Shown one piece after another: positions 5,075-57,302 of a stretch of DNA of 64,000 nt. The translations under genes were made by a program, and so were the position numbers. Under the pieces are notes generated by a model that did not search any database, was not told where the DNA came from, and saw only the letters and a list, made by a program, of their open reading frames with translations. Each line of letters opens with the position of its first letter. Positions within the stretch are counted from its first letter, which is position 1. The DNA is from a virus, in the IMG/VR virus record IMGVR_UViG_3300032116_000033, positions 70,894 through 134,893 of that record; one strand, 5' to 3'.

Positions 5075-5500
5075 TCATATTATACCCTCGTTTATATATT
5101 TCGTCAGTGATTCCTTGGTGTTGCGCACAGTATCAGGATCGTTGAGCTTTCGGTTCATCCCGCTGGGATGCGGAAGTGCCAGAAAGCCGCTTACGCCTGC
5201 TTCTGCTAAAGCTCTGGCTGCGGTCTTGCCCAGCGAGACCATCTTGGCGTCTGGATGCTGCGCGAGCTTTGCGATAAGGGAGTCTCTGGCCTCTCTTATC
5301 TGAGCTACGGACAAAGGTTTGTTTCCTTCGGTCTTGTCGTCGCAGACGTTGATGAACGTGAAGTTGGCGTTTAAGTTCTCGATCCAGCTTTCGAGCGTTT
5401 TTCTTGATCTGACTGAGACGTGGAAAGGAGAGGAGTCTGGACTAGACGAGCTGGGGTTCGAGCCTACGAACACTACGTTCACTACGTTCACTGTGCTCAT
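5075..5500 (-). CDS. Uracil-DNA glycosylase superfamily protein
   Basis: VFVGSNP, SLGKTA and LPHPSG motifs. Confidence 0.7.
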   Translation of the reverse strand: MSTVNVVNVVFVGSNPSSSSPDSSPFHVSVRSRKTLESWIENLNANFTFINVCDDKTEGNKPLSVAQIREARDSLIAKLAQHPDAKMVSLGKTAARALAEAGVSGFLALPHPSGMNRKLNDPDTVRNTKESLTKYINEGII

Positions 5501-6284: not shown

Positions 6285-6737
6285 TCAATCATGCTTCACC
6301 TTGTATATGAGGTCTATGTATTGATCCTCGTTTCGGATATCGATCTTTAGGTCCCTCATAGCAAGGATGTCGTCGAAGTCCCGGTACCTTGTCTTAGCCA
6401 CTACGCGCGTCACGCCGCTCTGCCACAGAAGCCTCATGCACACCTTGCACGGCGTCATCGTGCACACAACGAAGCAGTTCTCCATCGAGATGCCGTGGCG
6501 GGCGCAGTTGGCGATCAGGTTCATCTCACTGTGAACGATGTAGTCGTACTTGTCTGGACGAGTGCTCGGAAGAGAGTCGTCGTCTGCCCCTCGTACGAAG
6601 CCGTTGCAGCCGGTCGCAAGTATTGCACCCGTCGATTCTTTGATCAGGACGGATCCCACCTTTGTCTCTGAGTCGTGTGATCTCTGAGAGGCAGCTTCGG
6701 CCATCATCATGTAGGTCTCTATCTTAGAAGGCTTCAT
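6285..6737 (-). CDS. dCMP deaminase
   Basis: HSEMN and PCKVC zinc motifs, KVG..L, G.NG. Confidence 0.9.
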   Translation of the reverse strand: MKPSKIETYMMMAEAASQRSHDSETKVGSVLIKESTGAILATGCNGFVRGADDDSLPSTRPDKYDYIVHSEMNLIANCARHGISMENCFVVCTMTPCKVCMRLLWQSGVTRVVAKTRYRDFDDILAMRDLKIDIRNEDQYIDLIYKVKHD

Positions 6738-7330: not shown

Positions 7331-7906
7331 TCATCTCTGTATGAACCTCTTTATGTCTTCAAGATTCTTGTATTCTATCGAGACCGCGTCGTGCACGGCT
7401 CTTTGATATTGCTTGACTATCGGATGAAGGTCCTTGGCAAACATGAACCTGGACCACTCGCCCATGCTCGCGTACATCACGCCTTCCCAGTAAGCGGAAA
7501 CAGGCGTAGTGACGGACGCCACAAAAGCGTTGCAGCCGTCGTGTACGTAAGATTTCTGATTAAGCATCAGCGACTCGACCGTCATCTTCATCGACTCCGA
7601 GATGTCGCGATCGTTAGCAGTAGACCCTGACGCGATCATGTCCACGGTGGGGCAGAAAGCGTCGCTGGCCTGGCTCACGGACGACGTGCACCGTATGCCG
7701 GACGACACCATCGGGATAAGGATGAAGTACGGGCACTTTACCTGTAGGTGGACGTATATCATGTCTATGGCCTGCGACGTGAGCCTGTTCCTGAACATCG
7801 AGGATCTTATCTCTAGATGGTCGCTGTAGGACGGCGAGCACGACATCAGCGACACGTAGCCGTGGTCTAGAACAGGCAGTCTATTTAGCTTTGTTCTTTC
7901 GCTCAT
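7331..7906 (-). CDS. Degenerate ThyX-fold protein lacking the catalytic RHRxxSxxExSxRY motif
   Basis: VLDHGYVSL, VKCPYF and G....A....P...Y segments align by eye with ThyX; the signature motif is absent. Confidence 0.55.
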   Translation of the reverse strand: MSERTKLNRLPVLDHGYVSLMSCSPSYSDHLEIRSSMFRNRLTSQAIDMIYVHLQVKCPYFILIPMVSSGIRCTSSVSQASDAFCPTVDMIASGSTANDRDISESMKMTVESLMLNQKSYVHDGCNAFVASVTTPVSAYWEGVMYASMGEWSRFMFAKDLHPIVKQYQRAVHDAVSIEYKNLEDIKRFIQR

Positions 7907-9044: not shown

Positions 9045-9266
9045 CGCTCGGCTCCTTGTACTCGTAGGGTTTCCAGTAAGCGATCCAGTCGTCTACCGGG
9101 ATTCTCACGCTCTGAGTGATGTCCATCGGCCATGGTCTGTGGCGTTCGCCGATGTTCCACCACTCCACCTTCATCTTCAGGAGTCGCTTCTCTTTCGCGT
9201 AGAAGCACTTCAAGACCTTCAGCGCGACGTCTTTGTTGTTGACGTGCTTGAACATTCCTGTAGGTC

Positions 9267-10079
9267 TCATAGATCGCTCTTGAGAAGGTTTTCCATGAAA
9301 GCCACGTCGTGGCCGCACGAGTCTTTCCATGCATGCTCTGCGTCCTCGCGCTCCCACGCCCACTGCCGCATGCTGCCCTGACCGCTGACGGCGATGTGGC
9401 CTTTTACGATGGCAAGTAGCGCAGAGGCCCTCGCGTCGTCTCCGGCAAGCCATGCAAAGAAGGCGTTCTCGGGCTGACGAGAAGTGAGCTTCTTGGCTGC
9501 TTTCTTTGCGAGCCACGAGATCTTCGACCGGCCTCTTCTAGCGATCACAAGCGACAAGAGCGTCACACCCACCAGGTGAAGCGTGTATCCCAGCGGGTTG
9601 AATCTCGCAGAGACGTACACGTACGGGACGTGTAGGAACTTGGTGAGTCTGTAGACGAGCGGCACGATCCGCACGCCTGCCTCGATGGCCATCCAGTAGA
9701 CGCCGGGCGTCATGACGCAGCGACCGTCCGTGTCGTCGTTGCAGGCTTTGCAGCCGTTGTCGAGCGTGTGCTGGACCCAGCGATGGTAAGCGCCAAGAAC
9801 GCTGGAGCCGAACTGGGTCGTGTTCGCTTTTACTGCCGCAAGGCTGAGGCCGGTGGCCATGTCTCGGCTGAACGAGTTGATATGGCGCATGCCTTTGTCG
9901 GCCTGCTCTCGCTTGAGCGGAGACCTGAAGAAAGCACCGTCCTTGCCCTCGCAGCCCAAGATGCCGCTAGAGACGTCTTCGCCTGAGGCGTACATCAGCG
10001 CACCCCACAGAAGCGAGTCTCCGTCGTCTTGTCCGCCTTTGCACGGGATGCCCTCTACGTACTCTCGGTTCATGTCCAC
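9267..10079 (-). CDS. Hypothetical protein (270 aa)
   Basis: Long ORF with AAGGAG RBS, overlapping its neighbours operon-style. Confidence 0.6.
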   Translation of the reverse strand: MDMNREYVEGIPCKGGQDDGDSLLWGALMYASGEDVSSGILGCEGKDGAFFRSPLKREQADKGMRHINSFSRDMATGLSLAAVKANTTQFGSSVLGAYHRWVQHTLDNGCKACNDDTDGRCVMTPGVYWMAIEAGVRIVPLVYRLTKFLHVPYVYVSARFNPLGYTLHLVGVTLLSLVIARRGRSKISWLAKKAAKKLTSRQPENAFFAWLAGDDARASALLAIVKGHIAVSGQGSMRQWAWEREDAEHAWKDSCGHDVAFMENLLKSDL

Positions 10080-10450
10080 TCCTTCTCTTGATCAAGTAGA
10101 CCCGCCTCGCATGTGTACTCCTGCTCTTTAGAGAGGATACGGTCCATCACGATGTCAGCGCAGCGGATCTGTATGTAGTCGATCGTGTTGCTGTCTAGCC
10201 ACTTCGGCTTGTTCTTGGGGTTCTTGTCTAGGACGTAGACCTTCGCGTTGTTCTGGTCCTCTATCCACATCCTGCTGACTTCGCCGATCATCTCGTCGAA
10301 GTCGTATGGGCCGTGTATGGTCTTGGCCAACAGCCTGCCGTCGTCCCTGGCACCGGTAGACACGGCGACGATGAAGGTCTTGTCGTACAGACCTCGTAGG
10401 TCCATGCTCTCTACCTGAGGTACAAAAGTGCGTTCTGACGAGTCGTTCAT
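10070..10450 (-). CDS. Hypothetical protein
   Basis: ORF with GAGG RBS. Confidence 0.55.
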   Translation of the reverse strand: MNDSSERTFVPQVESMDLRGLYDKTFIVAVSTGARDDGRLLAKTIHGPYDFDEMIGEVSRMWIEDQNNAKVYVLDKNPKNKPKWLDSNTIDYIQIRCADIVMDRILSKEQEYTCEAGLLDQEKEWT

Positions 10451-10528
10451 CTTGACCTCTTGATCGTTTGCGATTGGTCTAACGTTATATACAAAACGTT
10501 GATGTCTTGATACGGAGATGTGGTGGAT

Positions 10529-11035
10529 CTAGGAGTCGAACCAGAACACGAACCTGAACTCGGTCTTGTTGCTGCAGCCCAGAAGAAGGTTCTCTGCCTT
10601 CTCCCAGTCGATGAGCTTGTTGACGTAGTCGATGGCCGAGTAGTCGATCCTCCAGGGTTGGTCGAAGGGGCCGATGTCAAGCGGTACGGTGTCAGACCAC
10701 TCGGGATCTTTTTTGACGATCTTGAAGTATCGGTCGAGCACGCGCTTAAGCTCCTTAGGCGTCAGCCACGACGAGCTGTGGAAGCCGCACTCGTGGGAGT
10801 CGGCCCACAGCTCGCTCACGAACTCGCACGTGCCTTCAGGTATGCCTCTTGCTGGATATATGGGGCTGTGGTAGGATCTTACGCCGGAAAGGAGACCGAA
10901 GAAGACGTAAGATCTTCCTTCGAGGGAGATGACCGAGCCGTAGTGATCGCTTTCTGGGCTTTTCTTGCCGTCCTCGAGCTGCCATGGACCTTTGTTCGTG
11001 CGTTTCTCCAGGAAGAAATGTACGTCTGTGCCCAC
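10529..11035 (-). CDS. Conserved-type phage hypothetical protein
   Basis: MG.D.H...E, R.Y..F..L.GVR, RG.P, HS.SWLT..EL and R.VFWFD pattern. Confidence 0.65.
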   Translation of the reverse strand: MGTDVHFFLEKRTNKGPWQLEDGKKSPESDHYGSVISLEGRSYVFFGLLSGVRSYHSPIYPARGIPEGTCEFVSELWADSHECGFHSSSWLTPKELKRVLDRYFKIVKKDPEWSDTVPLDIGPFDQPWRIDYSAIDYVNKLIDWEKAENLLLGCSNKTEFRFVFWFDS

Positions 11036-11048
11036 GTGCAGCCTCTTG

Positions 11049-11819
11049 TCAGTTGATTATGATGTAGTCAGCTTTGTCGGGTCTTTCCTTAAGATCCAGC
11101 TCTGCCTGCTTCTCTTTGCTTGCCTTGATGCTCTGTCTGCTGACTTCTTCGCTGAAGATCCCGTCTGGTGCATCGATCACGTCGACGATCTTGAGCCACC
11201 CATCGTTCGTTTCGGAAACGAGATCGGAGGCGATCCACATGGTCTCCTGGTCGAAATGGAGCTTAAACCACTTCTTTCCGTTTTCGCTTAGGGCATCGAA
11301 CCTTCTTCCTGCGATCATCACAGAGATCTCGTCCAGTCCTCTGCGGTCGATCTTGCGCATCTCTCTGGCCAGGATCTCTGCCATGTCTGCGGTGATAACT
11401 GCCTGCATCACGAACACCCTCGACGGGTGAAACAGAAGCAGCGAGTTCGGCATGGCGTACCGCTCGGTGCAGTGCGGCAGAAGCTGGAAGGCCATGGAAG
11501 CCGCCATCGTGCCTACGGCGCAGATCACCGGAACGTCTCTTGCTCTTGCGATATCAAGCGCTTGAGTCAGCTGATATCCCGCGAAGACGGATCCACCGGG
11601 CGAGTTGATGATCACGTAGATCGGGTCCTTAGACTTTGCCGAAAGACGCTCGATCTTGTGAGCCAGATCTATAGCGTTGCCGCCTATCGCACCGATGACG
11701 GCTACGGTTCTTTCTCCGCTAGGCACCTTGAGGTACGTCGGTCCCTTGTGCTTATCGGCAAGCGCCGAAGAAGCCACAAGACTGGCCACAAGCATTACAA
11801 ACAATCTTAATTTCTTCAT
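11049..11819 (-). CDS. ClpP-like serine protease with N-terminal signal peptide
   Basis: INSPGGSV, AASMAF (Ser), LLFHP (His); leader MKKLRLFVMLVASLVASSALA. Confidence 0.75.
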   Translation of the reverse strand: MKKLRLFVMLVASLVASSALADKHKGPTYLKVPSGERTVAVIGAIGGNAIDLAHKIERLSAKSKDPIYVIINSPGGSVFAGYQLTQALDIARARDVPVICAVGTMAASMAFQLLPHCTERYAMPNSLLLFHPSRVFVMQAVITADMAEILAREMRKIDRRGLDEISVMIAGRRFDALSENGKKWFKLHFDQETMWIASDLVSETNDGWLKIVDVIDAPDGIFSEEVSRQSIKASKEKQAELDLKERPDKADYIIIN

Positions 11820-11905
11820 GACTTCTCCATCCTTTAGTAAAAGCACCTAAAGGATGGTTATACTCGCTTTATTTAACTTTGCTCAAGGCCAACCAAGCAT
11901 CTTCT

Positions 11906-12760
11906 TCATCTGAGGAAGATCGCGCTTTTAAGCTCTTCGTACAGCAGCCAAGGATCTTCAATCTCAATTTGATTGCTTTTACGCATGTTGACTTTATGAT
12001 TCAAAGGGCGTAAGTTTCTAAGACTGTTCACTATTTTTACATCAAATACTTTGTTTTTTATAAACCAGTCAACAGGCAGGATATGGTCTATCGACCAACC
12101 TTCACGTCCATAGTTGCTCCAAGACATGTCTTCATTGAACTGGGCCTCTATGTGCTCTTTAAACTCTTTCCAAGAGTATCCGAGCATCTCTGTGGTTTTA
12201 TTTTTATTCTTAGTGATGCCGCCTGACTTACATACATTGGCCATAATGCCAGAGAGCATCTTTCTAGCCTTGACGCATTCTAAATAAAAATCCCTATCGT
12301 TGCTTATGAACCTGCCGTTTTTGACACTGCTACGTAGGCCTGAACTAAAGGAGCATGATCTGCACATCTTTGCGCCATGTGATTTCTTTTTGCCGCATTC
12401 GCATACATGCTTACCGGTCCAAGCAGGATTAGAAGAGCCTCTAGATCTAGCTGACATACGCTCAGCCTTGAGGATCTGGCACGAATCTTTGCTGCAGTAT
12501 TTTAATGAAGTTCTTACCGGATCTCCGCATGAGGCGCATTTGCCCTTTACCTTCTGGGTCTTACCGAACTTATCGCCCATCATCTTGCCGCGAATCTTAC
12601 CTATACACGACGCGCATCTTCCGTTCCAGGCAGGAAGATCGCGACTTATCTTTTCGTATTCTTTGTCGCATTCATCGCATTTAACACATATCTTGTCATA
12701 AGCTCTAGCTTCCTTGACATCATATCCTTTTACTTCTACTGTCTTTTCATATAATATCAT
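11906..12760 (-). CDS. HNH homing-type endonuclease with N-terminal Zn fingers
   Basis: Multiple CxxC; MSW.NYG..W.IDHI.P...N...NLRPL....N..K. Confidence 0.85.
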   Translation of the reverse strand: MILYEKTVEVKGYDVKEARAYDKICVKCDECDKEYEKISRDLPAWNGRCASCIGKIRGKMMGDKFGKTQKVKGKCASCGDPVRTSLKYCSKDSCQILKAERMSARSRGSSNPAWTGKHVCECGKKKSHGAKMCRSCSFSSGLRSSVKNGRFISNDRDFYLECVKARKMLSGIMANVCKSGGITKNKNKTTEMLGYSWKEFKEHIEAQFNEDMSWSNYGREGWSIDHILPVDWFIKNKVFDVKIVNSLRNLRPLNHKVNMRKSNQIEIEDPWLLYEELKSAIFLR

Positions 12761-12794
12761 TAGATTTTCTCCATGAGATCTAATGATATTATAT
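12749..12794 (-). promoter_or_regulatory. 17-bp perfect hairpin covering the HNH start codon, with TATAAT in its upstream arm
   Basis: ATATAATATCATTAGAT (12749-12765) pairs with ATCTAATGATATTATAT (12778-12794); GGAGA RBS in the loop. Confidence 0.7.
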
Positions 12795-12807
12795 CAGATC
12801 ATTAGAC

Positions 12808-13578
12808 CTAAATGCCAAGCATCTTCTTCATCTGAGGAAGATCGCGCTCGTAGATGTGCATGGAGTGCGCAGTGTGGGTGTAGGTGCCTTTGGTTAAGTT
12901 AGGGTACGTTGGTTTGAGCTCTTGAACCAGTCGATCCATCAGGCCGACGAACCACGACAGGTCATACACCAACCCCTTGGACAAATCGTTACTCCTCATA
13001 ACTATCGATAAACTCAGGCGATCTTCGCGAATAAGCCAGTTGCCATGCAGGGTGCACACCTGATCCTTGTTTCCGACCCAGCGGTGCTCAGGTAGAGCGA
13101 ATGCCATAACGGCTTGCCGCGTGTCTTTGTCGGCGATGAGGGCCTGCTTGGCCCATTCCCAGGGAGTACGGTGCGCTTCGCTGAACAGCGGAAACTTCCC
13201 GTCATACGGATCGCCGAACTCGTAGAGTGCGTTGCCTTGACTGGCGTTCTTCCAGATCAGGTACCCGTAAGCAGAGTTGATCGTCCCGTCTGGGTTAGCG
13301 ATCTTCTCCCAGAACTTAGAAGCCTTGGCGAAGTCCTCGACCGAGTTAGAGCAGGAATCGTACAGATCCATCTCTTTTGCCGTGTACTCGGCGATCACTC
13401 GGTTGCGCTCTGGGTCTCTGGTGACGACGGGCTCTGAGACAGGAGACGTGACCCTGAACGTGTAGTCGGTCTTCTCGAGGATCTTCTGCCCGCGCGGGGC
13501 ACACACGAAGTCTGGGTTCTCGAGCACGTCTTCTATGGTGCCTAGGTACGCTTCATGGATGTTGCCGTAGATCTTCAT
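12808..13578 (-). CDS. ThyA-superfamily enzyme, dCMP hydroxymethylase (T4 gp42)-like
   Basis: INSAYG, DTRQAV, catalytic VCT, MRSNDLSKGLVYD (Asp at the Asn/Asp specificity site), HSMHIY. Confidence 0.75.
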   Translation of the reverse strand: MKIYGNIHEAYLGTIEDVLENPDFVCAPRGQKILEKTDYTFRVTSPVSEPVVTRDPERNRVIAEYTAKEMDLYDSCSNSVEDFAKASKFWEKIANPDGTINSAYGYLIWKNASQGNALYEFGDPYDGKFPLFSEAHRTPWEWAKQALIADKDTRQAVMAFALPEHRWVGNKDQVCTLHGNWLIREDRLSLSIVMRSNDLSKGLVYDLSWFVGLMDRLVQELKPTYPNLTKGTYTHTAHSMHIYERDLPQMKKMLGI

Positions 13579-14182
13579 CGCTCACTCCTTCCTGTCGATC
13601 CCGCAGTGCTTGCAGGCTTCTTTAACAAAGTTGAAGGAGACGTTCACCCACTCGTGCTTGCAGACCTCGGCGTCGCCTTCTTTCCAGTACTTGGAGAAGT
13701 ACTGGTCCATGGGGGAGCTGCCGTGGCCGGTGTCGCGGTCCAGCTCGTCCAGGTACCAGGTGTAGCCCGGCGAGTACGGGATGTTGATCTTGCTCTCAGA
13801 GTCAGACATCGCTTTATCCTCACTCGTATAGTTCGTCGTCGGCCCGCATCATCATCTCCTGCTTCAGGAACTCGAGTATGCCGATCCACTCGAGGTAGTT
13901 GGTGCCCGCAGGGATGAACTTGTACTGATGTATACCGCTGTCGTTCTTGCCGTTGATTATCAGCATCATGCTGTCGATGTCGTCTCGCTCGATGTGGTCC
14001 TTGATCGCCGGGATGATCTCGCTGAGCATTTCCTGGACCTTGCCGATGTCTCTGAGTGTCATGTTTGCCTCTGTTAGATGGCGTTGTTGCCGTGTTTCTC
14101 GCTTATGAAGGTCAGCGCCTCTCGGATGTACGAGAGCTCGTTTCCTGCGTCTTCGGCGTACAGCGTGAGCACGTAGCCGTAC

Positions 14183-14692
14183 TCACTGTGAAAGACGTTG
14201 GCCCCGTTGTCCTCCGACGGCTGCACGTAGAGCTTGTGGTTCAGTCGGTTCGCGATCAGGTTCACCTTTGACACCAGGGATTCGCTTGTCATGCTGTGCT
14301 CCATCAAGTGAGTCTGCGATCTTGTTTGAGTATCTTATGGCCGCTCTCTCGTGCGGCCTTCGGCTCCAGGGCATCTTGTTTATGCTGCTCAGCTTCTTGT
14401 TCTTGTAGGTCCACCCGGAGCTGGTGCGGCGTATGGCCCCGCTGCGGACCTGGTAGAGGTGGTACGTCTCGTGCGCGACCGTCTTCACCATGTCCCTGTC
14501 GGTCGTTTCGGGGCAGAGCCTGACGACGATCAGGTCTCTGTCGAAGAATATTACCCCGGTCGTGTCGAGGCTTCGCTTGCACCAGCTCGGCCAGCGGTCG
14601 ACGACCACGACCTCTGCAGGAGCGATTCCGAGCGACATGCACATCAGTCTGTGCCATGCTTTTGCCTCTGCGGTCTTCTTTCTCAGCAGCAT
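14183..14692 (-). CDS. Putative Zn metallopeptidase (HExxH)
   Basis: VAHETYHLYQ plus downstream PHERAA. Confidence 0.55.
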   Translation of the reverse strand: MLLRKKTAEAKAWHRLMCMSLGIAPAEVVVVDRWPSWCKRSLDTTGVIFFDRDLIVVRLCPETTDRDMVKTVAHETYHLYQVRSGAIRRTSSGWTYKNKKLSSINKMPWSRRPHERAAIRYSNKIADSLDGAQHDKRIPGVKGEPDREPTEPQALRAAVGGQRGQRLSQ

Positions 14693-15055
14693 CTCTAACC
14701 TCGTCTAGTTGCATCGACCCACGATCTTCATCCTGTCGTTGCCGTCTTTCGGCACGAGGATCAGGCAGTCGCCTACGTCCACACCTCTCATCGCGTGGTC
14801 GTTGCTGAGTATCAGCGATTTCTTAAGCGTCTTGAGATCGACCACCGCGACACGATACTTGGCCTCGTCGTCGGGTCTCTTGGGCAGATTTATCGCTATA
14901 AAGAGCACTATGACCTTCACAGTCTTCCTCCCTTCTTTATGTTTTCGTAAAAACTACGCATACTCTGCTTATAGCGCTGCATCCTACACAGCTCTGAGCA
15001 TGTCTTGTAGTTAGACTGCTTTGCGATAAAGCTAAGGCCGCACACTGCGCAAGCT

Positions 15056-15442
15056 TTATTCATCGCTTAGGTCGCCTACGGCTTGCTCGATCTGGGAGGT
15101 CCAGACGCCGTACCCGTAGCGGCGCTTCGTGAGTTTCTTTAAGATCTGACCGCCGCGGTTGTAGATGTGCGTGAATATGAAGGTGGACTCTTTCACCGAG
15201 CGACCGTCCTCGGTGCGGTAGTCTGGGTTGTAGTTGCTGAGCGCGACGCAGACCTCCATGAGGAGGTACTGGCGGATGTCGCGTATGCTCATACCGGTGT
15301 TGCCGAGGGCCACGTCCTGCTTGTGGGGTGAGAGCGAGGCCTCGTTCCAGTTTTTGAGCACCGACTTTCGTATGTACGAGTCGACCATCGGCATGTACTT
15401 CTTGATGTCTTCGTCAGTTAGAGTTCTTTTTATCTTTGTCAT
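15056..15442 (-). CDS. Sigma-70 region-2-like small protein
   Basis: Y.PMV....., DI.Q.L...V..AL..Y.P, STF...HI.NR pattern; no region 4. Confidence 0.5.
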   Translation of the reverse strand: MTKIKRTLTDEDIKKYMPMVDSYIRKSVLKNWNEASLSPHKQDVALGNTGMSIRDIRQYLLMEVCVALSNYNPDYRTEDGRSVKESTFIFTHIYNRGGQILKKLTKRRYGYGVWTSQIEQAVGDLSDE

Positions 15443-15986
15443 GCTTCACCTTTAAGAGGTTGTCTTTTTCCCACAACGGTCGAAGGTTCGTGTAGTGACA
15501 CGCTTGCCTGAGCTGCTCATGCACCGAGAGATCGAAGCTGCACAGCGGCACGGCGTGGTCTATGTTCCATCTGTCTTTGCCTTTGCCGTAGTTCTCCCAG
15601 GACATGCCTGGTTCCCACAGTTTCTCTAGATGAGACCTGAGCTCCTCGATCGAGCACCCAAGATCGGCTACGGCAGATCCGTCTTTGGATCGGTTTCTGA
15701 TCGCGTTGGCGAGCCTGCTCCTGAGGTTGCAGGAGATCTTGAAGCTTAGGTCCGACTCGAGCTTCTGGCGCCGCTTCTCGTAGAGGTCCTGCTTGTTTCT
15801 CTGGAACCATCTCGCCTTGGTCTCTGCGACCCTGTCGCTGTTTTTTGCATGCCACTCCGCAGAGCTTTGCTTGGCTTTTTCTTTGTTCTTGGCGTACCAC
15901 TCTTTCTTGTTGCATCCGGCGCACTGGGTCTTGTTCTTGTACCATCTCGACGACTCGACCCGGTCGCAGTAGAGGCACCTGGTCAT
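15414..15986 (-). CDS. HNH homing-type endonuclease
   Basis: LRSRL, LGCSIEEL, GMSWENYG, WNIDH..P, ACHYTNLRPLW. Confidence 0.85.
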   Translation of the reverse strand: MTRCLYCDRVESSRWYKNKTQCAGCNKKEWYAKNKEKAKQSSAEWHAKNSDRVAETKARWFQRNKQDLYEKRRQKLESDLSFKISCNLRSRLANAIRNRSKDGSAVADLGCSIEELRSHLEKLWEPGMSWENYGKGKDRWNIDHAVPLCSFDLSVHEQLRQACHYTNLRPLWEKDNLLKVKHDKDKKNSN

Positions 15987-16486
15987 GTCTTCTTCGCCTC
16001 GAAGGCGGCGATCTTGCCGAAGACTACGTTTATGGTCTCTTCGTTGAGCTTGTCAGGATCGATCAGACCGGCGCGCAGTATGAGCTCGGAGAGCCTCTCG
16101 TCCGATGTCGCGATCCTGAACACGTTATCGCGTCTCAGGAGGTTCTTGAACGCCTGTTTCTGTTCCTTGACCTTCTTTGTCTTGCTTGAGCTTCTCTTGA
16201 GGTCCATCCATCTCATGAGGATGCGATCTCCGGCCAGCTCCACGAAGAACTTGACCAGATCGTACATAGATGTCTTGACCTCGGAGTTGGAGGCGAAATG
16301 ATCGTAGATCACCTTCACGTAGAGGGACCCGTCGTCGACCTCGCTGAACTCTTTGAGCCACGGCGTGTAAGAGTGAGACAAGCGCAGATCGCCGAAGTAT
16401 TCGTGGAAGATGATGGTCGCGATATTTTCCTGCTCGAGCGTTTGGCTCTCTACGTACCTGATTGCCTCGATCATAGACGATACCAT
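15983..16486 (-). CDS. Hypothetical protein
   Basis: ORF in operon context. Confidence 0.55.
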   Translation of the reverse strand: MVSSMIEAIRYVESQTLEQENIATIIFHEYFGDLRLSHSYTPWLKEFSEVDDGSLYVKVIYDHFASNSEVKTSMYDLVKFFVELAGDRILMRWMDLKRSSSKTKKVKEQKQAFKNLLRRDNVFRIATSDERLSELILRAGLIDPDKLNEETINVVFGKIAAFEAKKT

Positions 16487-16487
16487 G

Positions 16488-17234
16488 TCACAACCTCGAT
16501 ATCTTGTATATGGGTTTGTTGCTTCTGGCTATGGCTTTGATGTGTATGAGATTTATCTTGGCGAGATGGTAGTTCGACCCGCTGCCGGACGCGACCTGCG
16601 ACACCAGGCTCGCCACGTCGAACATCGCTTCCGAGGATCGGATGCGCCACTGGTTCGACCTGATCTTGGTCTCTAGGGCCCCACAGATAAGATCTCGCCA
16701 GTACTTTTGGCCCTTGCGGCGTCGCTCGCACGGTACGTCCAGGAGATCTGCAAGGTCTGATAATCGCTGAATATCTTCTGTGTCCAGCTCAGACGGTGTG
16801 TATATGTTATCGCACGCTTTTTCTAAGACGTAGTCGATGATCTTGGACTCGCTTGTGTCGAGCTTGGAGATCAAGATGTCGGACTCTTTGACCACTGCGC
16901 CTTTGTTCGTGTTGTACGAGAAGCATCCGTCGCTGAGATCGACCTTCAGGGATCTGTTGAACATGGACCTGTAGGCAGAGCAAATTGTCGTACTATCTTC
17001 CTCGAAGATCTCGTTTCGACCGTACATCACGTGTGCTATCAGCTTGTCTAGGCCTAAGTAGAATGAGCCGGATTTACACATCTTGGTCATGAAGGGTCTT
17101 ACCTGGTCTCTGGTCAGGACGAACGACTGGTCGAGTTTAGAGAGCTCGTCTAACACCGGGCACTGGAACGGCTCGACCATCTGCGATATTGGGTCTAGAC
17201 TGTCGTATGTCTCGTCGGCGAACAAGGCAACCAT
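16488..17234 (-). CDS. Hypothetical protein (248 aa)
   Basis: GGAGGAG RBS, long ORF. Confidence 0.6.
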   Translation of the reverse strand: MVALFADETYDSLDPISQMVEPFQCPVLDELSKLDQSFVLTRDQVRPFMTKMCKSGSFYLGLDKLIAHVMYGRNEIFEEDSTTICSAYRSMFNRSLKVDLSDGCFSYNTNKGAVVKESDILISKLDTSESKIIDYVLEKACDNIYTPSELDTEDIQRLSDLADLLDVPCERRRKGQKYWRDLICGALETKIRSNQWRIRSSEAMFDVASLVSQVASGSGSNYHLAKINLIHIKAIARSNKPIYKISRL

Positions 17235-23153: not shown

Positions 23154-23819
23154 CTACTCCACGAATAGACTTGGAAAATAATCCTTTAGCGCATCTTTAC
23201 AAGCCACAGCGATGTCGCGGTGCTCTTTCTGAGTCGAAGGATCCGACCTCACGGCGATATAGTGCATCCAGCTCCTCACAGATCCAGACATATAGAGCCT
23301 AGTCCTAGACGACAGCGGCAACACGAACCTCGCGCACTCCTTGGCTATACCGTTGTCTAGTGCCCATTTGTAATGCTCGAAGCATACTTTCCAGGCATCC
23401 AGTTGACGTATGGACCACTCGTCCTTGATGTCTGGCGGAAGGTCGTCTATGGAGTTCTGCTTGTTCTTGAGATCCTGGCGTCGTGCCGCATAGAGCACCA
23501 CGCCTGAATCGTCGAGCGACTGGTAGCGCTGACTGAACTCTTGAAACGAGAAGCTGCGATGTCTGAGGATCTGGGGCGCGATGCCGCGCGAGGTGTCGAT
23601 CTCGATCGTCACGTGGCTCATCTCGAACGGAGACCAGTGCTTGTGGTCCTGAAGATATTTCAGAAGTTTTGGCATGGTGTCGGTGTTGATTTGGTTGTTT
23701 GGGTTGGACACTCTAGCGCAGTAGGCTATTATGTCTTCTTGGTCGAGGTGATCGATGTCTTGTGCGACCGGCTTTGTGACCGATATGACTCGAACTGAGT
23801 ACTCATTGCTCGTCGTCAT
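23154..23819 (-). CDS. thyX: FAD-dependent thymidylate synthase
   Basis: ARVS, HWSPFE, RHRSFSFQEFSQRY, ARFVLP, TQKEHR. Confidence 0.95.
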   Translation of the reverse strand: MTTSNEYSVRVISVTKPVAQDIDHLDQEDIIAYCARVSNPNNQINTDTMPKLLKYLQDHKHWSPFEMSHVTIEIDTSRGIAPQILRHRSFSFQEFSQRYQSLDDSGVVLYAARRQDLKNKQNSIDDLPPDIKDEWSIRQLDAWKVCFEHYKWALDNGIAKECARFVLPLSSRTRLYMSGSVRSWMHYIAVRSDPSTQKEHRDIAVACKDALKDYFPSLFVE

Positions 23820-26364: not shown

Positions 26365-26450
26365 CGTCTCTCCTTGATGTTTATATGACTCTCATAGGTT
26401 CGGAAACACTTTCTCGAGGCACCTGGTATAATCGGCTCAGGAGGACCGCC

Positions 26451-31576: not shown

Positions 31577-31643
31577 GTTTAAACCTCGTATGTTTCGCTG
31601 CTCATGTATCGGATCGGTATATAATCACTATGGAGGAGTTTTT

Positions 31644-32641: not shown

Positions 32642-33631
32642 ATGCTCACCGCACCGCGATTAGTTTATCGTCCTTTCTTGTATCCGCAAGCCTTCGAGTA
32701 CTTCTCGAAGCAAGCCATGGCTCACTGGGTTCCGACCGAGGTCTCGATGGCGGGCGACATCCGCGACTACAACGAGAACCTCTCGAGCGCAGAGCGAAGC
32801 GTCGTGATCAAGATCCTGAGACTCTTCACGACGCTCGAGATCGACGCCGAGGAGTATTGGTCCAGCCACGTCGCCAAGTGGTTCCCGCATCCTGAGATCC
32901 AGCAGATGGCCTCGCTCAACGGCGGTATGGAGGCGATACACATCTGGGGCTACGACTATCTCTCCCAGAGTCTGAACCTTCCGCTGTCTGAGTACGAAGC
33001 CTTCCTGAAGGACCCGGCGATGAAGGCGAAGAAGGAGAGGCTCGGCGAGGTTCTGTCGAAGACCGAGACACTCGAGGACAAGGCACTGAGTCTCGCGGTC
33101 TTCTCCGCGTTCACCGAGGGTGTGTCGCTCTTCTCGTCGTTCGCGGTTCTGATGTCGTTCTCACGCTTCGGCAAGCTCAAGGGCGTCGCGAACATCGTGT
33201 CGTGGTCGGTGAGAGACGAGTCGCTTCACTCCGAAGCAGGATGCTGGCTCTTCAGGAAGCTGATAGAGGAGAACCCGCAGATAATGACAGACAAGCTCAG
33301 ACACGACATCCTGGATGCTGCGCGTCAGACCGTCGAGCTCGAGGACGACTACATCGACTCCGTGTTCTCCGAGGGCGAGATCCAGGAGCTCTCGTCCAAG
33401 GACCTAAAGGCGTACATCCGCTTCCGCGCCAACACCAAGCTCGAGGACTTGGGTCTCAAGCGCAACTGGCGCAACGTGGACATGCAGGCCGTTAAAAGAA
33501 TAACGCAGTGGTTCGACATAATGGTGAGCGGCGGCGAGCACGCGGACTTCTTCGCGCTCCGCAGCACTGCCTACTCCAAGGGGCACGTTTCTTGGAACAC
33601 GATCAACTTCGACGAAAGGGCGTATCGATGA
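32642..33631 (+). CDS. nrdB: Ribonucleotide reductase class Ia beta subunit
   Basis: W.P.E, EAIH..Y, EG..LFSSF, RDESLH, DFF. Confidence 0.95.
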   Translation: MLTAPRLVYRPFLYPQAFEYFSKQAMAHWVPTEVSMAGDIRDYNENLSSAERSVVIKILRLFTTLEIDAEEYWSSHVAKWFPHPEIQQMASLNGGMEAIHIWGYDYLSQSLNLPLSEYEAFLKDPAMKAKKERLGEVLSKTETLEDKALSLAVFSAFTEGVSLFSSFAVLMSFSRFGKLKGVANIVSWSVRDESLHSEAGCWLFRKLIEENPQIMTDKLRHDILDAARQTVELEDDYIDSVFSEGEIQELSSKDLKAYIRFRANTKLEDLGLKRNWRNVDMQAVKRITQWFDIMVSGGEHADFFALRSTAYSKGHVSWNTINFDERAYR

Positions 33632-35319
33632 GTCTGCAGGATCTGAAAGACAGAGGGTTGGCCCCAGAGTGGCTCACTGAGCCCGGATACCAGACGCTGT
33701 GCGGCGGGTATCTGTTGCCCGGTGAGAGCCCCCGCGACGCGTGGCGCCGTGTAGCGGTGTCAGCTGCTGCGCATCTCAGCAAGCCGGAGATGGCCGACCG
33801 CTTCTTCGATGTCATGTGGAACGGCTGGCTGTGCGCAGCGACGCCGGTCCTGTCGAACACAGGAACAGAGCGCGGACTTCCGATAAGCTGCTACTCGATA
33901 CACGTCGACGACTCTACCGACAGCATCTTCACCAAGAACCACGAGCTCGCCATGCTCAGCAAGTACGGTGGAGGCGTGGGCATATACATGGGCGACATCC
34001 GTGCCGCAGGGTCGAAGATCTCTACGGGCGGGACCACCGAAGGCCTCATACCGTTCGCTAAGGTCTACGACTCGACGATCATCGGCGTCTCGCAGGGAAA
34101 CATGCGCCGAGGTGCGGCCGCAGTGTATGCTCCGTGGTACCACGGCGACATCGCTTCTTTCCTGCGGATGCGGAGGCCTGAGGGCGACGTCAATCGTCAG
34201 TGCATGAACCTGCACCACGGAGTCTGTCTCGACGACGATTTCTTCGAGAAGCTGAAGGAAGGCGACGAGAAGACGCGAGAGCTATGTCGCGAGATCTACA
34301 AGATGCGACTCGAGACCGGAGAGCCTTACTGGTTCATGTCCGGCAACGTCAGGCGCAATAGGCCTGAGGCTTACGTCAAGCACGGACTCGAGGTCCACAC
34401 GTCCAACATCTGCAACGAGATCTACCTACACACCGACCCAGACCACTCCTTCGTGTGCTGTCTGAGCTCAATGAACCTGGCCAAGTATCACGAGTGGAAG
34501 GACACGGACGCGGTCTACGTCGCGACCTGGTTCCTCGAAGGCGTGATGACAGAGTTCATAAAGAAAGCGGAAGGTCGCCCAGGCTTCGAGGCTGCGGTTC
34601 GCCACGCCAAGAAAGGAAGAGCGCTGGGTCTTGGTGTGCTAGGCTGGCACACGCTCCTGCAGTCCGAGATGGTGTCGATGGGAGACTTCAGGGCCACGAT
34701 ACTCAACCGCGCGATCTTCAAGAAGATGAAGGAAGAGGCCACGAGGGCTTCAAGGGACATGGCCAAGGAGTACGGCGAGCCGCAGTGGTGCAAGGGCACC
34801 GGCATGCGCAACACCCATCTTCTCGCGATCGCACCGACCGCGTCCAACTCTATAATCTCTGGAAACGTGTCTGCTGGCATCGAGCCGATCAACGCCAACG
34901 CGTACGTCAAGAAGACCGCCAAGGGAACGTTCATCGAGTTCAATCCGCTCCTGAAAGCGCTCTTGGCCAAGAAAGGCAAGGACGACGAGCAGACGTGGAA
35001 GACCATAGTCGAGGACGGAGGATCGGTCAGGAACCTGTCGTTCCTTGACGATCAGGAGAAGGCCGTGTTCCGCACCGCCTTCGAGATCGACCAGCGCGTT
35101 CTGATCGACATGGCAGGCGATCGTCAGAAGTACGTATGCCAGGGCCAGAGTCTCAACCTCTTCTTCTCGGCAGACGTGGACCCGCAGTACTTCCATGAGG
35201 TGCACATGCGCGCCTACGAGGCGGGCCTCAACGGTCTATACTACGTGAGATCGAGCTCGGTCCTGAGGGCAGACATCTCTTCTCGCAGCGCCGAGGACTG
35301 CGTGGCCTGTCATGCATAG
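33628..35319 (+). CDS. nrdA: Ribonucleotide reductase class Ia alpha subunit (short form, no ATP cone)
   Basis: ATPVLSN, PISC, GGGVG, SNICNEI, IAPTAS, CQGQSLN, LYY, C-terminal CVACHA. Confidence 0.95.
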   Translation: MSLQDLKDRGLAPEWLTEPGYQTLCGGYLLPGESPRDAWRRVAVSAAAHLSKPEMADRFFDVMWNGWLCAATPVLSNTGTERGLPISCYSIHVDDSTDSIFTKNHELAMLSKYGGGVGIYMGDIRAAGSKISTGGTTEGLIPFAKVYDSTIIGVSQGNMRRGAAAVYAPWYHGDIASFLRMRRPEGDVNRQCMNLHHGVCLDDDFFEKLKEGDEKTRELCREIYKMRLETGEPYWFMSGNVRRNRPEAYVKHGLEVHTSNICNEIYLHTDPDHSFVCCLSSMNLAKYHEWKDTDAVYVATWFLEGVMTEFIKKAEGRPGFEAAVRHAKKGRALGLGVLGWHTLLQSEMVSMGDFRATILNRAIFKKMKEEATRASRDMAKEYGEPQWCKGTGMRNTHLLAIAPTASNSIISGNVSAGIEPINANAYVKKTAKGTFIEFNPLLKALLAKKGKDDEQTWKTIVEDGGSVRNLSFLDDQEKAVFRTAFEIDQRVLIDMAGDRQKYVCQGQSLNLFFSADVDPQYFHEVHMRAYEAGLNGLYYVRSSSVLRADISSRSAEDCVACHA

Positions 35320-37143: not shown

Positions 37144-37169
37144 GGTGAAGACCTCCTTCACCAATCTTA

Positions 37170-39063: not shown

Positions 39064-39603
39064 TTAGGATCGGATCATTTCGTGCACGAGCTCGAGCAAC
39101 GAGCCGTAGTCGTCGTACGAGACCTTGGCGTCTATAGTGTCGTTCTCCAAGAGCCACGGATATAGACTTACGTCTATGGCGATCGCCTGCTGCTCGTTCT
39201 CGTAGCGGCCTCTTGGATCGTAAGGCTTGGTGCGTGACAGGAATATGTTCTTGTGGTTCGTTCCGGCGGATCTTCTGGAGTGTTCGATGAAGGCTTTTGT
39301 GGTGCTGAGAAGATAGTCCTCGCCTCCGTAGTGCTTCTGGTAGAACGCGCAGAGCATCAGGGGACTGTCGGTGACTATGACGTCGACCTTACCGTAGAGC
39401 AGCGACTCTCGGTACGACTGCTCGCCCAGGAGATGGAGCTGGTTGAGAGGCGTGACGCGTCTGTCTCCCCAGGCCCAGTCCTTCACGTACTCTCTGACGA
39501 GCTCTACGTTGACCTTGGATGTCTTAAGGTCGCCGAACAGTCTTGCCGCGGTGGTGGATTTTCCGGTGCCAGGGCCTCCGAACAGGTTCACTACGAGTGT
39601 CAT
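39064..39603 (-). CDS. P-loop nucleotide kinase/NadR-like ATPase
   Basis: NLFGGPGTGKST, EYVK, VTDSPL, R.KPY...GR. Confidence 0.7.
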   Translation of the reverse strand: MTLVVNLFGGPGTGKSTTAARLFGDLKTSKVNVELVREYVKDWAWGDRRVTPLNQLHLLGEQSYRESLLYGKVDVIVTDSPLMLCAFYQKHYGGEDYLLSTTKAFIEHSRRSAGTNHKNIFLSRTKPYDPRGRYENEQQAIAIDVSLYPWLLENDTIDAKVSYDDYGSLLELVHEMIRS

Positions 39604-40377: not shown

Positions 40378-40388
40378 TATCATTTATA

Positions 40389-55207: not shown

Positions 55208-55822
55208 ATGCCAGCGTTCGTTTACAAGAAAAACATCAAATGCTACAAGTGCGAATGCACCGAGTGCGGCGTCGACAGGGGATTTCAGCCTCTTAGAAAC
55301 TTAAACAAAAAATGTGTAAAATGCAGCAACAAAAGCCGTGGACCTAAAAGCGAGTCATTTAAGCAAAAGATCTCTGCTAAGATGAAAGGCAACAAGAACA
55401 GCGCTAAGCCAGAGCCAACACCTGAGCAGATTAGATCAAGAAAATCAAGATACAATAAAAAAGCGCACACAAGAAACAAAGATAGATACAAAAACGACAT
55501 TGAATTTAGGTTAAGATGCGTTCTTCGCAGTAGACTGAAAGTAGCTATACAAAACAACTATAAAAATGGTTCTGCTGTAAAAGATCTTGGATGCTCTATC
55601 TCTGAGTTTAGGACCTATATGGAATCTAAGTTTCAACCGGGTATGACATGGGAAAACTGGTCACTGACAGGCTGGCACTTGGATCATATAGTGCCGCTCT
55701 CTGCTTTTGATCTAAGCGATCGAGAAGAGCTCGTTAAAGCATGTCATTACGCCAATCTACAGCCAATGTGGGCAAAAGACAACATCAGCAAAGGAGGCGC
55801 ACATGCCGGCGTTCGCCTCTAA
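55208..55822 (+). CDS. HNH homing-type endonuclease (same family as 15414 and 11906)
   Basis: LRSRL, LGCSI, GMTWEN, WHLDHI.P, ACHY.NLQPMW; AT-rich. Confidence 0.85.
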   Translation: MPAFVYKKNIKCYKCECTECGVDRGFQPLRNLNKKCVKCSNKSRGPKSESFKQKISAKMKGNKNSAKPEPTPEQIRSRKSRYNKKAHTRNKDRYKNDIEFRLRCVLRSRLKVAIQNNYKNGSAVKDLGCSISEFRTYMESKFQPGMTWENWSLTGWHLDHIVPLSAFDLSDREELVKACHYANLQPMWAKDNISKGGAHAGVRL

Positions 55823-57302
55823 GAAACAGTACCGTATGATGATGGCAATACTGCACGGCAAGTCTGGAACGACTGCCCGCGGAGACAGTGGGCCGCCAAA
55901 GTCTGTTGCCGAGAAGTACACAGGAAAAGAGAAGGGCTTGCCAGACGACAAGGGCAAGGCTCATCGCGGCGGCAAGTGGGATGAAAAAGCTCATAAGCGT
56001 CACTCAGACAAAGGTCGCAAGCTCAGCAAAAGCAGTAACAGCAAAACCACAGCCGTAGTTGTAGTCAACGACAAAGGTCAGCTCCTGATGGGCAGACAGA
56101 TAGACGAAGAATACAGATGGTCTTTTCCTGGCGGCCACTTAGACGAGGGAGAATCCTACGAGCAAGGGGCACTTCGCGAACTCAAGGAAGAGACTGGTTT
56201 GATCATCGATGCAGATAAGCTTTCGATTTTACACGAAAGCGACGATCAAAAAGTATACATCGCACGATTAAGCAACACTCCTGGTTTTCACTCGACATCC
56301 GAGCTGTCAGATGTTGGTTTTTATGACTTAGACGCAATAGATTTCAACAAGTTGCGCGCCTGCTGTGTAGAGACCATGATGCACTATCTTAAAGGTGGTC
56401 TAAAAAAGAGTAAACGATCTATAAGCGACCTCATGAAGATAGAGCAACTTGAGGTATTGTCCAAGAACATCATACGCACAGGTCAAGTAGCAGACGCGGT
56501 CTATGAGTTTCGCCACGGTGACGCTATAAGGCTTGTCGGCAACGGTGTGTTCAGGATGCTCAAGCGAGGCGTCGACGGCATGGGCGACGACGACATCAGA
56601 GACATACCGTTTGGCAGCTACACTTTACACGTCAGAAAGCACGCCAACGACATCTACTCTGGCAGGATCGACGACGGTTTAAAAACGATACACCAGTTCG
56701 TCAACCGCTCGCTTCCTTCTCTGACAGGCGAGCTTATGAGTGTTTTCGAGTGGTACAACGACGACGAGCATGAACTCGAGATACACGAAGACAGCGACCT
56801 AAGCGACGACACCATAAGCGATGCTGTCACTAAGATGGTCCACAACTATAGAAGCTACAACATAGCCGACATCTACGACGAGATGGAGTCTATACGAAGC
56901 GAGATCCGCCACGGCAACGCAGTCGATCTGCAGCAAGCAGAGCAGCGTATCATGAGCCTTTTCGACAAGCTCGAAGAACGCATGGACATCTTCAGAGACA
57001 AACACAACTCACTGGCTCAGCGGGCCGGAGAAGAGATCGACGAGATCGAGGAAAAGCTTCTTGCTCTTCAGGCTAAGATCGACGAGATGTCTAAGAAGCC
57101 GTCTAAGATGGAGGCTTTCTCTGCAGATCCGCCGAACCCATCAAAGATCATCGAAGAGTACTACGAGTACCTGTCGCGTCCTAGAGTTCTTATAAAGCCA
57201 AACGGCCACATAATCATAGACTTCGGCGCCGACTGGACAAGCGACGACAAGACCAATTTCCTTACCGACATGAGAGCGAAGGCACTCAAGGACAGCAGAT
57301 GA
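55803..57302 (+). CDS. Multidomain protein with a Nudix hydrolase domain in the structural module
   Basis: FPGGHLDEGESYEQGALRELKEETG Nudix box; coiled-coil C-terminal region. Confidence 0.75.
   Translation: MPAFASKKQYRMMMAILHGKSGTTARGDSGPPKSVAEKYTGKEKGLPDDKGKAHRGGKWDEKAHKRHSDKGRKLSKSSNSKTTAVVVVNDKGQLLMGRQIDEEYRWSFPGGHLDEGESYEQGALRELKEETGLIIDADKLSILHESDDQKVYIARLSNTPGFHSTSELSDVGFYDLDAIDFNKLRACCVETMMHYLKGGLKKSKRSISDLMKIEQLEVLSKNIIRTGQVADAVYEFRHGDAIRLVGNGVFRMLKRGVDGMGDDDIRDIPFGSYTLHVRKHANDIYSGRIDDGLKTIHQFVNRSLPSLTGELMSVFEWYNDDEHELEIHEDSDLSDDTISDAVTKMVHNYRSYNIADIYDEMESIRSEIRHGNAVDLQQAEQRIMSLFDKLEERMDIFRDKHNSLAQRAGEEIDEIEEKLLALQAKIDEMSKKPSKMEAFSADPPNPSKIIEEYYEYLSRPRVLIKPNGHIIIDFGADWTSDDKTNFLTDMRAKALKDSR

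Follow-up and report, generated by a model that had tools for sequence, protein, structure and literature searches.

The ThyA-like gene and its family

We analysed a window of 64,000 nucleotides (the whole stretch of DNA under study; positions 70,894 to 134,893 of IMG/VR record IMGVR_UViG_3300032116_000033), which forms the right-hand end of a single viral contig of 134,893 bp with 52.5% G+C. Our subject is a gene at 12808..13578 whose product resembles the thymidylate synthase ThyA and which, judging from its active-site residues and closest relatives, probably encodes a deoxycytidylate (dCMP) 5-hydroxymethylase of the type of phage T4 gp42, that is, a 5-hydroxymethyl-dCMP (5hm-dCMP) synthase. 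We describe its homology, fold, residue signature, conservation and gene content as observed, and build the interpretation on them. Positions are those of the window unless given as genome coordinates.

The open reading frame (ORF) lies on the minus strand, begins with ATG, encodes 256 amino acids and is free of internal stops; it is thus real and intact. The features that had first drawn attention to it, MRSNDLSKGLVYDLSWF (residues 194-210), INSAYG (residues 100-105) and a catalytic Cys, are all present. The protein is matched by Pfam PF00303 (Thymidylat_synt; E value 9.9e-11, 41.7 bits at a cut-off of 24.3) and by phrog_160 (E 2.2e-32), sequence matches that put its family membership far above chance. 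Databases (PF00303, phrog_160, JGI names) label it thymidylate synthase; the curated NCBIfam ThyA equivalog models give it 20-39 bits, with cut-offs of 174-327.

Its nearest relatives of solved structure are the cytosine hydroxymethylases MilA and T4 gp42, not ThyA. When phmmer was run against all chains of the Protein Data Bank (PDB), the best matches were to MilA, a cytidylate (CMP) 5-hydroxymethylase (E 7.4e-16 and 8.7e-16), with T4 dCMP hydroxymethylase at 2.2e-14, the flavin dCMP hydroxylase of phage HY126 (9iqu, 9iqc) at 1e-4, and true ThyAs at 5e-4 (B. subtilis) or at 0.08 to 1 (others). An AlphaFold2 model computed from a 31-row alignment, with a mean predicted local distance difference test score (pLDDT) of 93.8, has the thymidylate-synthase fold. 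Searched with Foldseek, this predicted structure found MilA first (E 6e-20, TM score 0.75) and the T4 enzyme second (E 1.4e-17 to 6.9e-17); ThyAs came at 1e-14 and weaker, and HY126 AfhB (9iqu) at 1.2e-13.

Homologues number 1736 at E <= 1e-3, on contigs of up to ~178 kb. In three metatranscriptome runs, contigs match short stretches of window positions 9000-18999, and one 341-nucleotide piece overlaps the first 181 nucleotides of the gene; as these may stem from DNA carry-over, we claim no expression from them.

Active-site and specificity residues

Residue equivalences were read from an alignment of the ThyA-like protein with E. coli ThyA and T2 gp42, and conservation from an alignment of 151 sequences (the query, its 120 best homologues and 30 IMG/VR loci). 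The nucleophile Cys175 corresponds to C146 of E. coli ThyA and C148 of T2/T4 gp42, and a Cys is found there in all 151 family members. Glu69 corresponds to E. coli E58, Tyr104 to Y94, and His241 and Tyr243 to H207 and Y209. The chain stops 12-13 residues past the HxY motif, without the ~50-residue C-terminus of ThyA, which closes the active site for hydride transfer and is needed for the reductive step.

The positions known to set specificity tell a consistent story. Asp206 is the equivalent of N177 in E. coli ThyA and of D179 in gp42, and Asp is invariant here (151/151). The original prediction had contrasted Asn in ThyA with Asp in gp42 at the specificity position; Asp206 indeed aligns with D179, and the gp42 string MRSNDVVFGFRND matches the pattern RSND..FG..ND that it quoted. 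A SPO1-like deoxyuridylate (dUMP) hydroxymethylase homologue, E. coli ThyA and a second ThyA in one relative (G007) all have Asn at 177. According to PMC13326640, PMC8670742 and PMC5175136, the N177D change leads to a preference for dCMP. Thr176 occupies the place of E. coli H147, again in every one of the 151 members, and positions 177 and 147 are described as those that best discriminate thymidylate-synthase homologues of cytosine-modified from those of unmodified contigs (MetaGPA, eLife 2021, PMC8670742).

Three residues before the nucleophile (Cys-3), as D145 does in T4, lies Asp172, which we equate with E. coli L143; Asp is present there in 151/151. As set out by Lee et al. (NAR 2026, PMC13326640), a bulky L143 keeps water out and goes with methyl products, and Asp or Glu at this place with hydroxymethyl products. 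Asp198 is the counterpart of E. coli D169 and is retained in 150/151, which implies that the enzyme is folate-dependent and not a flavin 5-hydroxy-dCMP synthase of the D169N kind, D169N being the mark of these newly found enzymes in PMC13326640. As a control, RB69 gp48 carries Asn in this column of the 151-sequence comparison, as the same source reports, and the Gly173 and Tyr209 equivalents that the ThyA-like protein retains are altered in it. The equivalents of Asp169 and Trp80 are both kept in the family. Arg195 and Ser196 correspond to E. coli R166 and S167 (T4 S169), and Arg154 to R126' (T4 R123'); the S167 position holds Ser in 144/151 and Ala in 7/151, the R126 position Arg in 151/151. 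This bears on the sugar: according to Zhao et al. (Sci Rep 2016, PMC5175136), MilA owes its ribose preference to Ala176 and Lys133', positions that are Ser and Arg in deoxy-specific enzymes. Taken by sequence, every published specificity position in the protein points to a deoxycytidylate hydroxymethylase.

The closest characterised parallel is gp42 of T4/T2 (PDB 1b49, 1b5d, 6a9a), which shares the ThyA fold, the catalytic Cys, the MRSND...D motif, Asp at the D169, N177 and Cys-3 positions, the Thr after the Cys and the deoxy-type Ser/Arg pair, and which in T4 likewise works alongside a separate thymidylate synthase and a dCMP deaminase. The likeness has limits: the two are 23-26% identical, the tree puts the ThyA-like family in a well-supported clade of its own and does not resolve it as the sister of gp42, and the family has an insert at about residues 106-140, a shorter C-terminus and Gln at the Arg127 equivalent. 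Furthermore, the T4 partners gp56 dCTPase and the alpha- and beta-glucosyltransferases were not found in this phage. The Asp177 homologues of MetaGPA, as presented in PMC8670742, share Asp177, a non-His residue at 147 and the co-occurrence of dCMP deaminase; many of their modules also include a carbamoyltransferase and a PRA-PH-type pyrophosphohydrolase, two genes that our searches did not find in this phage group.

We computed a maximum-likelihood tree from 25 rows: 14 members of the family, a thinned selection from the 31-row alignment, together with T2 gp42, RB69 gp48, the SPO1-like enzyme, E. coli ThyA, the second ThyA of G007 and the homologues of the phages PW916, Xp15, ATCCB, VPE25 and RsoM2USA and of an Agathobaculum phage. 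In it, the ThyAs of E. coli and G007 lie apart from every phage modification enzyme (support 100/97), and the query's family forms a clade of its own (98/97).

Thymidylate synthesis and nucleotide metabolism

The gene lies in a genome with a broad set of deoxynucleotide genes:

23154..23819, minus strand, canonical ThyX (Pfam Thy1 E 2.3e-47, profile positions 3-191 of 191; phrog_85 E 5.2e-70)
6285..6737, minus strand, dCMP deaminase (PF00383 E 4.7e-21; phrog_174 E 9.9e-35)
genome coordinates 14686-15135, dUTPase
33508..35319, plus strand, ribonucleotide reductase large subunit, for deoxynucleotide supply (PF02867 E 1.5e-101; phrog_84 E 7.2e-161)
39064..39603, minus strand, P-loop kinase-like protein of 179 amino acids (PF13521 AAA_28 E 1.5e-11; phrog_2107 'thymidylate kinase' E 2.1e-12)

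ThyX is intact, as had been supposed from the sequence: the Thy1 match is nearly full-length (PF02511, 161.5 bits) and the RHR...S...S.RY motif is visible. It is the likely source of thymidylate (dTMP) for the phage. The dCMP deaminase is predicted to supply ThyX with dUMP and would draw on dCMP, as the ThyA-like enzyme would. The 179-residue P-loop protein, for which no sequence match was found in the PDB, may tentatively be put forward as a candidate (deoxy)nucleoside monophosphate kinase for the modified nucleotide.

To see this arrangement in a wider frame, we surveyed this genome and 10 relatives carrying the ThyA-like gene (11 genomes in total, 7 of the relatives complete). The ThyA-like gene is in all 11, and ThyX scores above the Pfam cut-off in seven, including four of the seven complete relatives. 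The complete relative G007 has no ThyX and shows a second PF00303 match (119.6 bits) with His147 and Asn177, i.e., a canonical ThyA. A clear separate ThyX or ThyA is therefore present in five of the seven complete relatives, which fits a role other than thymidylate synthesis for the ThyA-like gene.

Proposed reaction

We put the probability that the gene encodes a gp42-type dCMP 5-hydroxymethylase at about 0.7. The active site matches that of the T4 enzyme that makes 5hm-dCMP, and on this ground the phage DNA probably holds modified cytosine. By homology with the T4 hydroxymethylase and ThyA, Cys175 would attack C6 of dCMP, Asp206 would read and protonate the N3/N4 face of the cytosine, and 5,10-methylene-tetrahydrofolate would be bound and opened by Asp198 and Trp90, with Tyr104 and Glu69 handling the C5 proton. 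The exocyclic methylene intermediate would then be hydrated and not reduced, Asp172 standing at the Leu143 position of ThyA and the C-terminal lid being absent. The resulting 5hm-dCMP would be phosphorylated, possibly by one of the two P-loop kinase-like proteins of the phage, and could enter DNA through its Pol III alpha-type polymerase; dTMP would meanwhile come from dCMP deaminase, dUTPase and ThyX, a division of labour like that of cd, td and gp42 in T4. We infer the substrate and product in this way, and with them incorporation into DNA, the extent of cytosine replacement and any later tailoring of the product.

Several observations weigh against this reading. The assignment as a whole is an argument from homology, and the equivalence of Asp172 with L143 was obtained by ungapped counting back from the Cys; the alignment column is ambiguous, as four residues are inserted ahead of the Cys in E. 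coli ThyA and MAFFT places E. coli D139 in the Asp172 column. In the tree, the family is not placed beside gp42, and gp42, gp48 and other groups form a deep polytomy with long branches, so that the tree says 'not canonical ThyA' and names no sister group. Of the phylogeny that the original prediction had proposed as a check, the split from canonical ThyA thus came out clearly (100/97), but a sister among the characterised enzymes did not. Nor is the second-synthase pattern universal, since the complete relatives G002 and G006 have sub-threshold ThyX-like matches only and no canonical ThyA; by its coordinates, the match in G002 is a ThyX-fold protein of 191 amino acids that we describe below.

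A further difficulty is the lack of recognisable partners, so that, by sequence, no means of excluding dCTP is visible. The MazG and PRA-PH profiles (gp56-type dCTPase; PF03819, PF01503), both of which matched in control genomes, were found in none of the 11 genomes, and the same holds for the carbamoyltransferase N-domain and for the T4 beta-glucosyltransferase family PF09198, the latter having matched nowhere and thus lacking a positive control. The GT1 and GT2 families were absent from this genome and four complete relatives (0/5). In this genome, tblastn of RB69 gp56 and the PW916 nucleoside triphosphate (NTP) pyrophosphohydrolase gave chance-level matches only, as did RB69 gp45, and the beta-glucosyltransferases of VPE25 and ATCCB gave chance-level matches at most; as a positive control, the VPE25 dUTPase found that of the phage. 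This genome is itself ~81% complete (CheckV). With no dCTPase, DNA glycosyltransferase or DNA carbamoyltransferase recognised, replacement of cytosine, above all complete replacement, would have to proceed without a recognisable pathway. The sole candidate NTP pyrophosphatase that could deplete dCTP is the following:

55803..57302, plus strand, NUDIX-domain protein of 499 amino acids (PF00293 E 1e-17; domain at about residues 80-180, long flanks, among virion genes)

A NUDIX protein of ~500 amino acids occurs in 9/11 genomes and in all seven complete relatives. The families and structures closest to it are of generic MutT/RppH type, which makes a dCTPase role a speculative guess.

Alternative explanations

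The enzyme could share the chemistry described above up to the methylene intermediate and then take a hydride from tetrahydrofolate, which would make it a 5-methyl-dCMP synthase, a dCMP methyltransferase like the one reported for Xanthomonas phage XP12, and lead to 5-methylcytosine DNA. Work cited in PMC8670742 has N177D alone shifting ThyA to dCMP and giving 5-methyl-dCMP. The retained Asp169 and Trp80 equivalents make folate binding expected in this case too, and no glycosyltransferase needing a hydroxyl acceptor was found. However, the protein is without the ~50 C-terminal residues that act as a lid in ThyA, and its nearest solved relatives are hydroxymethylases; with an Asp at Cys-3 in all 151 members, where an acidic residue goes with hydroxymethyl products in the account of PMC13326640, we regard a methylase as unlikely. 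A flavin-dependent 5-hydroxy-dCMP synthase, with 5-hydroxycytosine serving as a sugar anchor, is highly improbable. Enzymes of this type (RB69 gp48, DLP3 gp80, HY126 AfhB; PDB 9iqu, 9iqc) do have the same fold, N177D and an acidic residue at the L143 position before the Cys (PMC13326640), and RB69 gp48 shares the short C-terminus; 9iqu is also among the Foldseek matches (E 1.2e-13). What separates them is D169N and the use of flavin and O2 (PMC13326640): the family has Asp in 150/151 where RB69 gp48 has Asn, retains the Gly173 and Tyr209 equivalents altered in gp48, and by sequence matches the HY126 enzyme at E 1e-4, compared with 1e-14 to 1e-16 for hydroxymethylases.

The database labels would suggest a redundant or divergent thymidylate synthase, or else a dUMP hydroxymethylase, acting on dUMP in a phage whose DNA is canonical or modified at T, and G002 and G006, which show no other clear thymidylate synthase, could be taken in its favour. 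Canonical ThyA and the SPO1-type dUMP hydroxymethylase share with the protein the fold, the Cys and the equivalents of Glu58, Tyr94, Arg166/Ser167 and His207/Tyr209, but they have Asn177, and ThyA also His147, Leu143 and the long C-terminal lid, whereas the family is invariant for Asp at 177 and Thr at 147. Given also the NCBIfam ThyA scores far below their cut-offs, the 100/97 split from canonical ThyA and an intact ThyX in the same genome, we consider an enzyme acting on dUMP very unlikely. Finally, MilA heads both the sequence (E 7.4e-16) and the fold (E 6e-20, TM 0.75) comparisons, which raises the question of whether the enzyme might hydroxymethylate the ribonucleotide CMP, like MilA/BcmA, for a small-molecule or RNA-related use. 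MilA (mildiomycin biosynthesis; PDB 5jnh, 5b6d) is of the same cytosine-specific type, with Asp at N177 and L143 (PMC13326640). It differs in being a bacterial enzyme of secondary metabolism with a long C-terminal extension (318 amino acids), and in the residues tied to ribose in PMC5175136, Ala176/Lys133', which are Ser196/Arg154 here (Ser in 144 and Arg in all 151 of the family). The gene, moreover, belongs to a deoxynucleotide module of a phage, together with dCMP deaminase, and no nucleoside-antibiotic genes were seen in the genome annotation scans; the chance that CMP is the substrate appears very small.

We thus return to the dCMP hydroxymethylase. The proposal that the gene encodes a cytosine-specific enzyme and is not the dTMP source agrees with the residues, the solved structures, the fold, the tree and the separate synthase in 5/7 complete relatives, but the accompanying claim of base substitution in the genome is an extrapolation for which no dCTPase or DNA glycosyl- or carbamoyltransferase was seen. 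Similarly, the original choice of products (hm5dCMP, m5dCMP or a related nucleotide) can be narrowed to the hydroxymethylase signature: a methylase fits less well, and 5-hydroxy-dCMP is at odds with the absence of D169N.

Other phages are already known to pair a cytosine hydroxymethylase with an ordinary thymidylate synthase; the case here, from an unstudied group of uncultured freshwater phages, would be a further one. If the reading is true, large freshwater phages of a widespread, recurrent group swap at least part of their cytosine for 5-hydroxymethylcytosine (5hmC) or a derivative. This would bear on escape from restriction and from CRISPR (clustered regularly interspaced short palindromic repeats) systems in lakes, would imply bias in metagenomic library preparation and methylation calling, and could offer a source of new DNA-modifying enzymes. 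Given that the enzyme class, the residue rules and the tie to modified metagenomic contigs are already published, the finding adds to the known picture without altering it; the point of most interest is how the clade copes without the usual dCTPase and transferases.

Conserved gene module and neighbouring genes

We compared all ORFs of this genome by local tblastn with 42 related loci. In 21 of these, the dCMP deaminase (6285-6737) is no more than 10 kb away from the ThyA-like gene, a pairing that we count in favour of the hydroxymethylase reading. Other genes that recur are:

7331..7906, minus strand, divergent ThyX-fold protein of 191 amino acids (20/42 loci)
5075..5500, minus strand, uracil-DNA glycosylase (UDG)-superfamily protein of 141 amino acids (PF03167 E 6.5e-10; 17/42 loci)
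10070-10450, ORF of 126 amino acids (19/42 loci)
15056-15442, minus strand, protein of 128 amino acids, next to the ThyA-like gene in 19/42 loci

An ORF of 66 amino acids is also present in 11/42 loci. The UDG-superfamily protein may repair deaminated bases. A protein with a pyrimidine-dimer glycosylase (DenV-like) domain at 4108-4596 on the minus strand adjoins the dCMP deaminase together with the UDG-like gene.

The 191-residue protein may be linked to the pathway, to judge by its position in the module. Its family profile matches T. maritima ThyX in the PDB almost over the full length (E 2.7e-07), and its AlphaFold2 model (pLDDT 83.8) matches the same structure in Foldseek (E 8.7e-09, TM 0.64); hhalign gives a 61% probability for its relation to the ThyX of the window. 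The RHR...S catalytic motif is not conserved in the family (13-row alignment).

Beside the ThyA-like gene, this phage has an insertion of a homing-endonuclease-like gene (11906-12760) and several small ORFs. We rejected this immediate neighbour as a pathway partner, as it belongs to the many HNH and endonuclease VII-like homing-endonuclease genes of the genome. The 128-residue neighbour was set aside as well: the only lead is its nearness to phage sigma-factor-like clusters in a protein-language-model search.

The nearest homologues in cultured phages have annotated tailoring genes as neighbours, which we also count in favour of the hydroxymethylase reading. That of Lactobacillus phage ATCCB stands beside an annotated beta-glucosyltransferase and a UDP-galactopyranose mutase; that of Enterococcus phage VPE25 stands beside an annotated dUTPase, beta-glucosyltransferase and nucleotide-sugar synthetase-like protein; and that of Xanthomonas phage Xp15 adjoins an annotated carbamoyltransferase and dCMP deaminase.

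Heptose-related genes

Two further genes of this phage raised the question of a sugar on 5hmC:

44117-45565, minus strand, HldE-like bifunctional heptose kinase/adenylyltransferase (NCBIfam NF008454, 464 bits; adenylyltransferase domain (II) above cut-off)
genome coordinates 54597-55517, minus strand, divergent GT9 heptosyltransferase-like GT-B protein (PF01075 E 1.1e-9)

A precedent exists in bioRxiv 10.1101/2023.12.21.572611, where a metagenomic cluster comprising kinase-like, cytidylyltransferase and GT-B enzymes was reconstituted and made heptosyl-5hmC, so far the only system to have done so. In our genome, the GT9-like gene sits among structural genes, on the opposite strand. Neither it nor the HldE-like gene was found in any of the 10 relatives carrying the ThyA-like gene (7 complete), with controls on this genome positive, and the sole recurrence of the GT9-like gene among relatives is on a 30.8-kb fragment from a close one. 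Seen from the other side, 10 other viral records have the GT9-like gene, and just one of them also has a ThyA-like gene (36% identity); the essentially complete records G017 and G020 among them have no PF00303; HldE is absent from 9/10 of these records and appears in one as a partial kinase match. As the two genes do not travel with the ThyA-like gene, we rejected heptosylated 5hmC as the principal reading, and its odds are low. The target of the pair could be a virion protein, lipopolysaccharide or DNA.

A bolder picture, which we think improbable, is that the freshwater clade runs a cytosine modification built unlike that of T4, with no gp56-like dCTPase or known DNA sugar transferase in its 7 complete genomes, with the 191-residue ThyX-fold protein lacking the catalytic motif as a possible new partner, and, in this phage, with the HldE-like and GT9-like proteins putting heptose on 5hmC. 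The 191-residue protein could, for instance, act in control of the dCMP/dCTP pool or in base tailoring.

Palindromic sequences

The remark in the original prediction that GATC, TCGA, CTAG and AGCT look common, which was thought to fit a genome with no need to avoid restriction sites, was followed up by counts over the whole genome of 134,893 bp, with expectations from base composition and from a trinucleotide Markov model. Compared with base composition, under which 523 sites are expected for each, GATC (1140 observed, ratio 2.18), TCGA (982, 1.88) and AGCT (686, 1.31) are indeed common, but CTAG is depleted (308, 0.59). Under the Markov model the expectations are 1033 for GATC (ratio 1.10), 968 for TCGA (1.01), 691 for AGCT (0.99) and 370 for CTAG (0.83, z -4.3). 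All 64 six-base palindromes together occur 2147 times, compared with 2121 (base composition) or 2310 (Markov) expected, and the class shows neither avoidance nor enrichment. For eight of the 64, z falls below -2, and rare words include TTCGAA, with 6 sites seen and 21.9 expected. As the excess is mostly a matter of lower-order composition, CTAG is depleted and some six-base words are rare, the palindromes carry no weight and provide evidence neither for nor against DNA modification.

Genome and occurrence

The contig is 81% complete by CheckV, and no terminal repeats were found. Near-identical DNA occurs in freshwater and "fungus" metagenomes from 2017-2024, with 12 studies among the 17 runs that hold at least half of the sampled words; nine of these runs may be the contig's own source. 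As assembled contigs, the matches from the runs cannot reveal base modification. A megablast search found no near-identical DNA in cultured phages; its only match there is of 34 exact bases in Brevundimonas phage Bajun, which would correspond to window positions 20100-20133, within the peptide deformylase gene. Other genes mark the phage as one with a contractile tail and include replication and auxiliary functions:

59538-61715, tail sheath gene
20023-20541, minus strand, peptide deformylase
11049-11846 (minus strand) and 27937-28734 (plus strand), two ClpP-like proteases
genome coordinates 15844-17547, GroEL-like chaperonin
genome coordinates 24626-28645, Pol III alpha-type polymerase with fused exonuclease and PHP domains
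11906-12760, 50860-51273, 52731-53375, 55208-55822 and 26325-27323, homing-endonuclease-like genes
genome coordinates 9168-9869, 30993-31676, 38467-40170, 47822-48604, 49525-50169, 53015-54556 and 61947-62528, homing-endonuclease-like genes
genome coordinates 35395-37650 and 40148-42826 (the latter being the terminase), large ORFs with LAGLIDADG or intein domains
49-2919, plus strand, very large fn3-repeat protein of 956 amino acids
genome coordinates 68257-73812, plus strand, very large fn3-repeat protein of 1851 amino acids with the same domain set

The homing-endonuclease-like genes (HNH, endonuclease VII-like, NUMOD3) are unusually many. The genome further holds a DnaB-like helicase, a primase, a RecA/UvsX-like recombinase, an SbcCD-like nuclease, an N6/N4 DNA methylase and inteins. 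The two fn3-repeat proteins are probably tail fibre or tip proteins.

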